DNA of 33,514 nucleotides from a virus (Duplodnaviria > Heunggongvirae > Uroviricota > Caudoviricetes): IMG/VR virus record IMGVR_UViG_3300009502_000019, one strand, 5' to 3'. The translations under genes were made by a program, and so were the position numbers. A model generated the notes under the pieces. That model saw only the letters and a program-made list of their open reading frames with translations, was not told where the DNA came from and searched no databases. Shown one piece after another: positions 523-8,017 of the stretch; the stretch's first letter is position 1, and every line of letters begins with the position of its first letter.

Positions 523-597
523 TGGTAGCGGAACCCGGAGCTGCCCCGGAACTTCTGGCTTATGAAACCAGCGCTCTTCTAGTTAAGCTATTCCGCC
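523..597 (-). tRNA. tRNA with CAT anticodon (elongator Met or Ile2)
   Basis: GGCGGAA/TTCCGCT, loop TT-CAT-AA, T-loop GGCAGCT, A73, CCA. Confidence 0.88.
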
Positions 598-702: not shown

Positions 703-776
703 TGGTCCACCTGAGAGGTAATGCTCCTCCGTCGCCCGGTTATCGGCCGGGTGCTCTGCTATTGAGCTACAGGTGG
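703..776 (-). tRNA. trnI: tRNA-Ile(GAT)
   Basis: CCACCTG/CAGGTGG, loop CC-GAT-AA, T-loop AGCATTA, CCA. Confidence 0.9.
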
Positions 777-822: not shown

Positions 823-917
823 TGGTACACGCGGAAGGACTTGAACCTTCATATTTAGCCAGTCCGGCCAATGACCCGGGTATAAACCGGGGGGTTTACC
901 AGTTAACCTACGCGTGC
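823..917 (-). tRNA. trnI: tRNA-Ile(TAT) with 24-nt variable region
   Basis: GCACGCG/CGCGTGT, stem CCCGG/CCGGG, loop TT-TAT-AC, V-arm TTGGCC-GGACT-GGCTAA, T-loop TTCAAGT, A73-CCA; 95 nt. Confidence 0.88.
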
Positions 918-1120
918 CTGTAACCACCTTCAAATTGTCTTACCGCTTCTCTTACTGCACGAACTGTTTGCTGACACATAACACAGCCAGCTATGTGCTG
1001 TTTCATTTTGATATGCCTGCTTTTGCTAAGCGAACCGTCTACGTATTCACCTAACGGCAGTCTACTGCACTTCTCTTCTTGAATGCAATACCACTTAAAC
1101 ACCACGTCCATATCGTCCAT
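908..1120 (-). CDS. Small zinc-finger protein, anti-sigma zf-HC2-like
   Basis: GGAGG SD; L.EYVDG.L...HIAGCVMC (H-x3-C-x2-C) motif. Confidence 0.65.
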   Translation of the reverse strand: MDDMDVVFKWYCIQEEKCSRLPLGEYVDGSLSKSRHIKMKQHIAGCVMCQQTVRAVREAVRQFEGGYRHA

Positions 1121-1277: not shown

Positions 1278-1353
1278 TGGTGGGAAGTGAAGGGCACGAT
1301 CCTTCAACCTTCTGCATGTCATACAGATGCTCTTCCAATTGAGCTAACTTCCC
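1278..1353 (-). tRNA. trnV: tRNA-Val(GAC)
   Basis: GGGAAGT/ACTTCCC, loop AT-GAC-AT, T-loop ATCGTGC, CCA. Confidence 0.9.
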
Positions 1354-1354
1354 C

Positions 1355-1430
1355 TGGTGCGTGATGAAGGACTCGAACCTTCGATATCCTGGATGTAGGC
1401 CAGGTGTCCTAGCCGCTGAACGAATCACGC
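1355..1430 (-). tRNA. trnV: tRNA-Val(TAC)
   Basis: GCGTGAT/ATCACGC, loop CC-TAC-AT, T-loop TTCGAGT, CCA. Confidence 0.93.
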
Positions 1431-2781: not shown

Positions 2782-2856
2782 TGGTCGGAGTAGGGAATCT
2801 TGCAATCCCAACCTCTCGGTCCCGAACCGAGCGCTCTTCTTTTGAGCTACACTCCG
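2782..2856 (-). tRNA. trnP: tRNA-Pro(CGG)
   Basis: CGGAGTG/TACTCCG, loop TT-CGG-GA, T-loop TGCAAGA, CCA. Confidence 0.92.
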
Positions 2857-4208
2857 TTAAAAATATCCTGCTTTTCAGCGAGATACTTTAGATACACTTC
2901 TTTGTCTTCTCCGAGCTTTAGTTCCCCATTCGTCAGTGCCGCCATCACGAGATCCTTAAGCCTTCCAACCTCCTTACCTCCTGGAAGACTGAATCGCTCC
3001 ATGATAGACAGCCCGTCTAGTGGGCACTTAAGTTCTTTGTAGTTCTTTACTTCCTCGATCCTGTTCTTAAGGTGATCGATACGGGCTAGGTTCATTTGAA
3101 CCTTCTCTGGTCTATGGCTAGTAATATCAGCGGCACTCAGAGCGATCAGCTTGTCAAGATGGGCCCCGGTCTCGACAACGTACCTTCTTACCGCTGAATC
3201 TGACCAGTCTTCCTTGTACAGGTTCGTTCTCATGTGGTTCCGGACCAAGTACGTTACGTCCTCGATCACCTTCCGCGGCAGCCCGAGCCGACTCAAGATT
3301 GAATAAGCCATCAGAGCCGAAACCTCTTCGTGCCGGTAGAAGTGCACCCGTCCATCCCACTCAGTCTTAACGTAAGGCTTGCCGACGTCATGGAACAACG
3401 CTGCAAACCTTGAAGCTACTTCAGCCGGCGAGTTCTCAACTACTCCTACCGTATGAAGCCATACATTTTTGCTGTGGTACTTGCTGTCTTGGTCCACAGC
3501 ATTAAGTACCGTCAGCTCCGGGATGAAGTAATTGAGCAGCTTGTACTTCAGCAAGTCATTCAGAGCCTCACCAACGTACTTACCAAGCAGTATCTTGGTG
3601 AACTCGTCTAGGATTCGCTCCTTCGGCAGGAACAGAAGCCTGTGTGCTTCACTTGCTAAAGCCTCTCTTACTCCATCTGAATACAAAAACCCAAACCGCG
3701 ACTTGAACCGGATCGCCCTAAGCATCCTGAGCGGATCGTCGCTAAAGATCTCTGCCGCTTTCATAGGGGTCTCAAGGATCCCCTTTGCCAGGTGCTCCTT
3801 GCCTCCGAAGAGGTCTACTACCTCCCCATTTCGATCCATTGCCAGGGCATTGATCGTAAAGTCCCGGCGGATCAGGTCGTCCGCGATCGTTGTTCCCCAC
3901 TCCACAACCGGCCGGCGGTTATCCCTCTGGTACTTCTCGTTTTTTCTAAATGTAGTTGCTTGTATGATGTACCCATCCATAACAACTTCTATTGTTCCAA
4001 AGGCTTTTCCTACATCGTGTACTTTGTAACCTGCTTTTTGAAAGACCTTTTCAGTATCGTCTGGAAGAAGGTTAATAGCAAAATCCAGATCATCCGTGTC
4101 TTTTCCAAGCAGCTTGTCACGGACTGTGCCACCAACCAAGTATATGTCAGCGTCTTTGAATAGTGAAAATACCTTTTCTACTACCCTATCAGTGATAGTT
4201 TCAGGCAT
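2847..4208 (-). CDS. cca: CCA tRNA nucleotidyltransferase with HD domain
   Basis: YLVGGTVRD..DLDF, RRDFTINALA, DDPLRMLRAIRF, HT...FHDVGKP motifs of class II CCA/poly(A) polymerase family. Confidence 0.93.
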   Translation of the reverse strand: MPETITDRVVEKVFSLFKDADIYLVGGTVRDKLLGKDTDDLDFAINLLPDDTEKVFQKAGYKVHDVGKAFGTIEVVMDGYIIQATTFRKNEKYQRDNRRPVVEWGTTIADDLIRRDFTINALAMDRNGEVVDLFGGKEHLAKGILETPMKAAEIFSDDPLRMLRAIRFKSRFGFLYSDGVREALASEAHRLLFLPKERILDEFTKILLGKYVGEALNDLLKYKLLNYFIPELTVLNAVDQDSKYHSKNVWLHTVGVVENSPAEVASRFAALFHDVGKPYVKTEWDGRVHFYRHEEVSALMAYSILSRLGLPRKVIEDVTYLVRNHMRTNLYKEDWSDSAVRRYVVETGAHLDKLIALSAADITSHRPEKVQMNLARIDHLKNRIEEVKNYKELKCPLDGLSIMERFSLPGGKEVGRLKDLVMAALTNGELKLGEDKEVYLKYLAEKQDIFNGV

Positions 4209-5103: not shown

Positions 5104-5177
5104 TGGCTGGCGATGGAGGTACCGCCCCTCCGCCTCAAGGTTCAAAGCCTCGCACGCTGCTATTACGCCAATCGCCA
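5104..5177 (-). tRNA. trnQ: tRNA-Gln(TTG)
   Basis: TGGCGAT/ATCGCCA, loop CT-TTG-AA, T-loop GGCGGTA, CCA. Confidence 0.9.
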
Positions 5178-5787: not shown

Positions 5788-5874
5788 TGGAGACGGCTGT
5801 CGGACTTGCACCGACGTGTGGATTGCTCCAACAGGTTTTGCAGACCTGCACATTCGCTGCTCTGTCAAGCCGTC
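5788..5874 (-). tRNA. trnC: tRNA-Cys(GCA) with long variable arm
   Basis: GACGGCT/AGCCGTC, loop CT-GCA-AA, U73, V-arm TGGA-GCAA-TCCA, T-loop TGCAAGT; 87 nt. Confidence 0.88.
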
Positions 5875-6520: not shown

Positions 6521-6528
6521 ATAAAAAT

Positions 6529-6813
6529 ATTTGAGAACTATAACCCGGGTTCTGTAGTTACCTTTCAGTAACTGCTAATCATCTGTCTAAGCTCCAAACC
6601 CGCTACTATTGACTGAGTAAGTCAGTAGCCTATTTTGGATTGCATCATGCAAGGATTGCCAACGTTTCACTCCCACTAAAGGGTTTCGTCACTGTGGCTC
6701 TATACTCTCAGTCTTTCAACTGGTCAAAGTTATTAGCTTTGATGCACTACTCTTGATGCCCGGAGTTTCCTCGAATATCCATTGCAGATACCCGCGATTA
6801 GCCGTTCTCAAAT
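6529..6813 (-). ncRNA. rnpB: RNase P RNA (compact bacterial-type)
   Basis: P1 ATTTGAGAAC/GTTCTCAAAT; P4 strands GAGGAAACTCCGGGC (6772-6758) and ACAGAACCCGGGTTA (6555-6541) with a compensatory C-G; GCCACAG, GTGAAAC, GGCAATCC, CAAAATAGG and AGACAGATGAT conserved blocks in the right order. Confidence 0.9.
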
Positions 6814-7748: not shown

Positions 7749-7821
7749 GGTAGCGCATAACGGTACTGCCCCGATGTCTCCTGGCTGAGAACCAGACGTC
7801 CTTCTTTTAGACGAATGCGCC
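7748..7821 (-). tRNA. trnE: tRNA-Glu(CTC), genomic 3' end CCT
   Basis: GGCGCAT/ATGCGCT, loop TT-CTC-AG, T-loop GGCAGTA. Confidence 0.88.
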
Positions 7822-7943: not shown

Positions 7944-8017
7944 TGGTAGGGGTAGACGGTACTGACCCGTCGTTTCCTGGGTGAAAACCAGGTGACCTGC
8001 CTTTAGTCGATACCCCC
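7944..8017 (-). tRNA. trnE: tRNA-Glu(TTC)
   Basis: GGGGGTA/TACCCCT, loop TT-TTC-AC, T-loop GTCAGTA, CCA. Confidence 0.9.

Follow-up and report, generated by a model that had tools for sequence, protein, structure and literature searches.

A phage class I tRNA-Ile(UAU) with a second anticodon-arm-sized hairpin, a likely decoder of AUA

The window analysed here is a 33,514-nucleotide stretch of a 46.8-kb IMG/VR record, which is estimated to be about 40% complete and comes from a large uncultured phage. The genes of the record lie on one strand, and the first 8 kb hold about 30 tRNA genes together with a reduced RNase P RNA, a CCA-adding enzyme and homing endonucleases. The tRNA array is grouped by amino acid, with the transcription order Asn, Val, Val, Ile(UAU), Ile(GAU), a CAU tRNA, four Arg and five Leu (Table 1). 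No sigma-70-type promoter or intrinsic terminator was found within 1.7 kb, which is consistent with co-transcription of the array. A 70-residue ORF (908-1120, minus strand) lies between tRNA-Val and tRNA-Ile(UAU), and its stop overlaps the first bases of the latter. This ORF gave a weak match to zf-HC2, an anti-sigma zinc finger (E = 3.5e-4; 21 bits, below the cut-off of 22.2), with the motif H-x3-C-x2-C.

The RNase P RNA inside the array (6525-6813, minus strand; 134 bits) is a shortened bacterial type A RNA. Six tRNAs on the minus strand were seen by Rfam and missed by ARAGORN with default settings (526-597, 706-776, 2785-2856, 5107-5177, 7751-7821 and 7947-8017), several of them with non-canonical D and T loops. 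In the tRNA-Ile(GAU), the universal U33 is replaced by C33 (loop CCGAUAA), the D loop lacks GG and the T loop is AGCAUUA. Its orthologue in a related phage (L072:15710-15784) carries the anticodon loop CCGAUUA (C33, U37), the same heptamer as some of the second-arm loops described below. An 87-nt tRNA-Cys(GCA) with U73 (5788-5874, minus strand) has an extra variable-region hairpin, UGGA-GCAA-UCCA, capped by a GNRA tetraloop, whereas the Cys tRNAs of relatives are ordinary (74-76 nt). Leu tRNAs are normally class II; a 76-nt Leu(UAA) without a long variable arm lies outside the window in the same phage (G000:C1:43032-43107), and a related phage has four Leu tRNAs of 75-77 nt that also lack it (L069:18305-18624). 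The CCA-adding enzyme gene (2847-4208, minus strand) uses ATC 16 times and ATA 4 times, whereas the rest of the record is ATA-led, and this codon bias may reflect a more recent acquisition.

Table 1. Features of the tRNA-Ile(UAU) locus and syntenic Ile(UAU) genes of related phages
Feature	Position	Strand	Length	Basis or second arm
tRNA gene, anticodon UAU	823-917	-		ARAGORN; Rfam RF00005; cloverleaf fold
Anticodon arm, tRNA positions 27-43, CCCGG/UUUAUAC/CCGGG; anticodon UAU at 882-884	875-891	-		sequence
Second arm, tRNA positions 47-63, stem UUGGC(C)/(G)GCUAA, loop CGGACUG	855-871	-		fold; family covariation; recurrence of the loop class
AUAU, 4-nt spacer between second arm and T stem, equivalent to the class I variable loop	851-854	-		arm-less orthologue L069; family spacer lengths
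tRNA-Ile(GAU), next gene downstream of Ile(UAU)	703-776	-		Rfam, 51 bits; ARAGORN at lowered threshold
CAU tRNA, Met-type by anticodon; G4-C69, so not Ile-like	523-597	-		Rfam, 46.7 bits; ARAGORN
Two tRNA-Val genes (GAC, UAC), upstream of Ile(UAU)	1278-1430	-		ARAGORN; order kept in related phages
Ile(UAU) of L068			90 nt	second arm GGCC-CAGAUUA-GGCC
Ile(UAU) of L072			92 nt	second arm GCUC-CAGAUUA-GAGC
Ile(UAU) of L074			91 nt	second arm GCUC-CCGAUUA-GAGC
Ile(UAU) of L069			76 nt	no second arm; variable loop AAUAU, then the same GAAGG T stem

The locus at 823-917 is a real, intact phage tRNA gene. ARAGORN called a 95-nt tRNA-Ile(tat) with an encoded CCA, and Rfam RF00005 gave it 56.4 bits, where the gathering score is 29. 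The minimum free energy fold of the RNA is a cloverleaf with one extra hairpin (-34 kcal/mol, z = -2.2). Read from the sequence, the acceptor stem has 7 bp and opens with G1.U72, the D stem has 4 bp (GGUU/AACC) with the D loop AACUGGUA, and the T arm is GAAGG/UUCAAGU/CCUUC, with discriminator A73 ahead of the CCA. The anticodon loop is a canonical 7-nt loop with U33 and A37 that presents UAU. It is followed by a 24-nt insert, UCA-UUGGCC-GGACU-GGCUAA-AUAU. Every stem is perfectly paired, including the 6-bp second stem, and the identical sequence occurs in three assemblies, the IMG/VR record and two metagenome assemblies. The original prediction of a tRNA-Ile(UAU) with a 24-nt extra arm was thus borne out by both tRNA searches and by the fold. 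The opening G1.U72 pair is also found in the CAU tRNA and Leu(UAA) of the same phage, and in 14 of 26 aligned two-armed Ile(UAU) tRNAs (alignment A2).

The extra arm had been taken for a class II variable arm on a tRNA with otherwise canonical loops. The anticodon loop is indeed canonical, but the class II label did not hold, because the body belongs to class I, with a D stem of 4 bp; the closest relatives are UAU tRNAs, and the extra hairpin has the size of an anticodon arm and is followed by a variable loop of 4-5 nt, here the four unpaired bases AUAU. When the arm was removed and the body was compared with about 300 phage tRNAs, the 16 best-scoring sequences were all UAU tRNAs (72-79% identity) and none was a Leu or Ser tRNA; the best Leu tRNA reached 72% and the best Ser tRNA 69%. 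The tRNA is therefore not derived from tRNA-Leu or tRNA-Ser, unlike the nematode nev-tRNA-Ile(UAU), and it does not combine a Leu or Ser body with a foreign anticodon as nev-tRNAs and allo-tRNAs do. Other long tRNAs of these phages (Cys, Asn and CAU) carry short hairpins with GNRA tetraloop caps, so that the second arm of tRNA-Ile(UAU) is a different thing; a long Thr tRNA with an extra segment also occurs in these phages. The best description of the molecule is that of a class I tRNA carrying two tandem anticodon-arm-sized hairpins.

The codon usage of the record, proposed as a check in the original prediction, agrees with a need for AUA decoding. ATA is the commonest isoleucine codon, accounting for 304 of 793 (38%), or 22.7 per 1000 codons. 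The meaning of these codons was assessed in three conserved proteins (the CCA-adding enzyme, a GDP-mannose dehydratase-type epimerase and a DegT-type aminotransferase), to each of which 119 homologues were aligned. Across their 22 ATA codons, the majority residue in the homologues was Ile at 14, Leu at 5 and Val at 1. With profiles built from the phage's own codons, the log-likelihood of the ATA columns was -31.7 for Ile (ATT/ATC), compared with -48.1 for Val, -51.8 for Leu, -59.4 for Met and -102 for Ser. High ATA usage and Ile-like ATA columns together suggest that the phage genes expect isoleucine at AUA and require much AUA decoding, and this makes the decoding of AUA as isoleucine the likeliest job of the UAU tRNA. 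No candidate for a lysidine-type tRNA-Ile2 was seen in the array, where both CAU tRNAs lack C4-G69, so the UAU tRNA would be the sole evident AUA reader that the phage brings. No TilS-type domain was found in the 46.8-kb record, an absence that says nothing for a record about 40% complete.

The isoleucine identity elements known from E. coli beyond the anticodon, A73, C4-G69, U12-A23 and C29-G41 (PMC9976931), are all present in the tRNA; G16 is absent and replaced by C16. The E. coli isoleucyl-tRNA synthetase (IleRS) prefers the lysidine-containing anticodon LAU to UAU 360-fold, and E. coli ribosomes let an unmodified UAU anticodon read AUG as well (PMC3575796), so the problem of AUG misreading is real. 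As the original prediction proposed, the arm may limit such misreading or alter identity. As judged from codon usage and alignments, tRNA-Ile(UAU) is most likely the AUA-to-Ile decoder of the phage, and AUA decoding independent of TilS is plausible.

Homologues of the gene were sought through related phages, which were reached by way of CCA-adding enzyme homologues (55-68% identity) and their contigs; a related-locus search with the CCA-adding enzyme alone returned no loci. The contigs of the closest relatives of the enzyme (63-75% identity) stop short of the Ile gene. The order Asn-Val-Ile(UAU)-Ile(GAU) is kept in four related phage lineages, three of which have a two-armed Ile(UAU) and one of which, L069, has an Ile(UAU) that lacks the second arm (Table 1). 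IMG/VR scans with the anticodon arm alone recovered about 27 distinct tRNAs, nearly all with the same two-armed layout. The homologue search that had been suggested thus yielded both syntenic orthologues and a wider phage family, the design being common to hundreds of phage tRNA-Ile(UAU) genes. Among cultured Lactobacillus phages, the layout occurs in 3-521 and ENFP1, where the gene is annotated simply as tRNA-Ile, and in LpeD and Lpa804, where it is unannotated. Closer relatives of this exact tRNA lineage were not found by anticodon-arm pattern in IMG/VR and metagenomes: the exact pattern with G43 had no match in IMG/VR and only a chance non-tRNA match in metagenomes. A scan of bacterial genomes returned mostly chance matches; the handful of genuine tRNAs among them belonged to the GAU-class two-armed tRNAs or to rewired types in which no GAY loop could be recognised. 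The literature searched did not mention a phage UAU tRNA that carries a second arm, and the family is apparently unpublished.

An alignment of 26 family members revealed a conserved architecture. A73 is invariant, C29-G41 is present in 24 and C4-G69 in 22. In the second arm, a core of four Watson-Crick pairs, to which a fifth, non-canonical layer is often added, carries a loop of 7 nt; each of the four core pairs shows compensatory changes, and 99% of cells are paired. On the 3' side of the arm lie 5-6 nt, made up of the fifth layer and a spacer of 4-5 nt, which is the size of a class I variable loop. The tRNA at 823-917 has the same sequence of parts: UAU arm, second hairpin, spacer and T arm. 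ARAGORN also called UAU tRNAs of 75-88 nt with unusual layouts, in which the D-arm region looks rearranged, in five contigs (L040, L045, L084, L151 and L189). In five others (L014, L027, L028, L029 and L032), the 16-mer of the UAU anticodon arm stands in a non-tRNA context, and a conserved GGCGAUCAACCCG motif precedes such copies in several viral contigs.

Most second loops of two-armed tRNAs show GAU, the ordinary isoleucine anticodon. The loop of the present tRNA is CGGACUG and does not display GAU; if the inner C-G pair closes, it is reduced to GGACU (861-865), with the GGAC core at 862-865. A context scan with CGGACNG found further genuine UAU tRNAs on the unrelated stems GCUC/GAGC, CAGC/GCUG, CACC/GGUG, GCAC/GUGU, GCAG/CUGU and UCC/GGA, the exact heptamer CGGACUG recurring in the unrelated bodies L204, L232, L215 and L224. 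A scan blind to the loop added the GGAC-class loop UGGACGA. The GGAC class thus comprises 10 distinct tRNAs on at least 8 stems, a minority of about 3-7%. Among 182 distinct two-armed tRNAs, a sample drawn in large part from loop-targeted scans, the loop core was AGAU in 166, GGAC in 10, UGAU in 3 and CGAU in 3, and GGAU and AGAC did not occur. The loop-blind samples, with 99 distinct UAU tRNAs, gave 75 AGAU, 3 GGAC, 3 UGAU, 3 CGAU and again no GGAU or AGAC, the remainder being 7 other arms and 8 tRNAs without an arm. In these loop-blind samples, G at position 33' of the second loop goes with C at 36' (Fisher p = 1e-5, in a test that ignores kinship). Six of the 182 loops (UGAU and CGAU) break the 33'-36' pairing rule.

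Each of the ten GGAC tRNAs has its nearest body relatives in the GAU class, for example L204 with L036 (84%) and L207 with L303 (91%), indicating that the double change from AGAU to GGAC arose repeatedly. The tRNAs of the cultured phages 3-521 (GGAC) and ENFP1 (AGAU) are 99% identical outside the arm, and three of their four differences lie in the loop. Judged from ten GGAC sequences, the outer bases of the second loop change together, as the partners of a Watson-Crick pair would, on either side of a G-A that never varies. Both this 33'/36' covariation and the GGAC class are new for the two-armed tRNA family.

We consider the best explanation to be that the gene encodes a working phage tRNA that is charged with isoleucine by the host IleRS and reads AUA, and whose second arm acts through RNA base pairing; we give this joint reading a probability of about 0.55. 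The first hairpin, with U33, UAU and A37, would decode the most-used isoleucine codon of the phage. The second hairpin, placed after the first and ahead of an ordinary 4-nt variable loop, is part of an inherited design that syntenic orthologues and hundreds of other phage tRNA-Ile(UAU) genes also have, and its loop, with the invariant G-A and covarying flanks, may work in either of two ways. Bases 33' and 36' may pair across the loop and close a G-A turn, or two copies may form a self-complementary loop-loop contact with tandem G.A pairs. tRNA dimers joined anticodon to anticodon are known, for example the GUC/GUC dimer of yeast tRNA-Asp. Both 5'-AGAU-3' and 5'-GGAC-3' are self-complementary, each forming two Watson-Crick pairs around a central tandem G.A. 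Symmetric (GA)2 loops with A-U or G-C closing pairs, (GGAC)2 among them, are well established as motifs in RNA (PMC5900564); the covariation in the phage arms is what a self-pairing loop requires, but these motifs were shown in duplexes and loop-loop pairing of the phage arms is only predicted. A pair within the loop would explain the covariation equally well, and the inner C-G pair, which may cut the loop of this copy to 5 nt, would disfavour kissing.

A bolder version, to which we give a slender chance, takes the RGAY core as a pairing module through which tRNA copies, or the tRNA and another RNA with the same palindrome, kiss by their loops, AGAU and GGAC being mutually exclusive 'mating types' that arose repeatedly. 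If true, this would be a natural tRNA whose function requires loops other than the anticodon loop to pair with each other, for instance to control its charging, stability or ribosome use. Two other partners of the second loop were considered and rejected. Pairing with the T loop or T stem has a GGAC-GUCC match here and fails in L204, L232, 3-521 and ENFP1, and the UAU anticodon loop offers no complementarity.

An alternative that we regard as unlikely is that the second arm is a handle for IleRS, displaying GAU so that an enzyme with a poor acceptance of UAU can charge the tRNA all the same, and that the handle drifted to GAC and was lost or weakened in this copy. About 90% of the family show GAU in a loop of anticodon size on a stem of anticodon size, the arm has the true 3' context of an anticodon arm, with a variable loop of 4-5 nt coming next, and the 360-fold discrimination of the E. 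coli enzyme against UAU (PMC3575796) would provide a reason for such a device. However, a mimic predicts U33', a purine at 37' and an invariant U36', whereas the family prefers A33' (166 of 182 loops, with U in only 3) and mostly U37', so that the family retains neither the base of the U-turn nor A37 (the t6A site). C36' is tolerated only with G33', and the GGAC form is not drift, as it is found on at least eight different stems, among GAU-class nearest relatives and always with G33'. C36 is moreover a determinant for valine and not for isoleucine (PMC9976931). An arm at the variable-arm position would probably not reach the anticodon-binding domain unless the tRNA refolds, and the L069 orthologue manages without an arm. 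The covariation of the outer bases weakens the idea of a copied anticodon, and a literal copy of GAU is less likely than a pairing role.

It is far less probable that another synthetase charges the tRNA, LeuRS or SerRS through the long arm or ValRS through the GAC loop, and that AUA is decoded in part as Leu, Ser or Val. In favour of this, neither LeuRS nor SerRS reads the anticodon, A73 is compatible with Leu, GAC is the Val anticodon and a long-armed nematode tRNA-Ile(UAU) is charged only with leucine in vitro (PMC3333845). Against it, the class I body with its 4-bp D stem groups with UAU tRNAs, its D loop is unlike those of the phage's Leu and Ser tRNAs, and the ATA positions of the phage are Ile-like rather than Leu-, Val- or Ser-like. 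Class II tRNAs have a 3-bp D stem, and their variable arms leave one or two unpaired bases before the T stem, compared with 4-5 after the arm here. The phage tRNA also lacks G73 and has C2-G71, an antideterminant for E. coli SerRS (PMC9976931). It is likewise scarcely credible that the gene is a decaying copy, its arm a relic and its loop change neutral damage. The GAC loop departs from the majority GAU and the L069 lineage lost its arm altogether, but all stems are perfectly paired, even the 6-bp second stem, the exact loop recurs in four unrelated bodies and the sequence is identical in three assemblies. One-off decay of the GAC loop in particular was overturned by its recurrence on unrelated stems and by the GAU-class nearest relatives. 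Phage tRNA arrays have been linked to counter-defence, and the RNA could be mainly non-decoding, either a decoy or spare against a host tRNA-cleaving defence or a regulator that pairs through its second loop. The reduced RNase P RNA and a tRNA-shaped RNA in the same array, as well as the conserved and partly self-complementary loop, would fit such a role. We nevertheless find it improbable, since the decoding arm, elbow, acceptor end and CCA show no departure from the canonical form, the demand for AUA decoding is high and the gene keeps its place among isoacceptors.

Several known tRNAs resemble the present one in part. Lactobacillus tRNA-Ile(UAU) was reportedly treated in papers by Tomikawa in 2018 and by Uesugi in 2022, and Mukai in 2017 is said to have described allo-tRNAs with UAU that are derived from Ser or Sec tRNAs and charged accordingly. 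Documented cases of tRNA-Ile(UAU) come from a few bacteria and archaea (PMC3575796; tRNAscan-SE 2.0 paper) and from a B. subtilis suppressor strain (PMC3919564). The bacterial 'tRNA-Ile3' (Mycoplasma mobile, Bifidobacterium, Neorickettsia and lactic acid bacteria) shares with the phage tRNA a genomic UAU, A73 and Ile-type stem pairs, and both are expected to read AUA without lysidine. The described ones, however, are ordinary class I tRNAs of 76-77 nt in cells with an adapted IleRS or ribosome (PMC3575796; tRNAscan-SE 2.0 paper), whereas the present tRNA is phage-borne and has a second arm. The nematode nev-tRNA-Ile(UAU) is also long-armed with an isoleucine anticodon, but it is Leu-derived and Leu-accepting (PMC3333845), in contrast to the Ile-type phage tRNA, for which ATA codons mean isoleucine. 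Class II tRNAs (Leu, Ser, bacterial Tyr and Sec) similarly have a stem-loop between the anticodon arm and the T arm, but differ from the 4-bp D stem, the 7-nt arm loop and the 4-5 unpaired bases after the arm seen here. The closest resemblance in layout, spacing and covarying second stem is to the GAU-class two-armed phage tRNA-Ile genes, to which the syntenic orthologues belong; they differ in having the core AGAU where this copy has GGAC.

In the textbook view, extra arms are reserved for Leu, Ser, Tyr and Sec tRNAs, and bacteria read AUA by means of lysidine. A large phage tRNA family that appears to use a plain UAU for AUA and carries a second, conserved hairpin of anticodon-arm size departs from both. 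The cultured Lactobacillus brevis phages 3-521 (GGAC) and ENFP1 (AGAU) provide a ready experimental pair. The two loop forms AGAU and GGAC, which never mix, count against the simplest idea, that the isoleucine anticodon was copied for the synthetase, and represent the first sequence-level clue to the mechanism of the arm.
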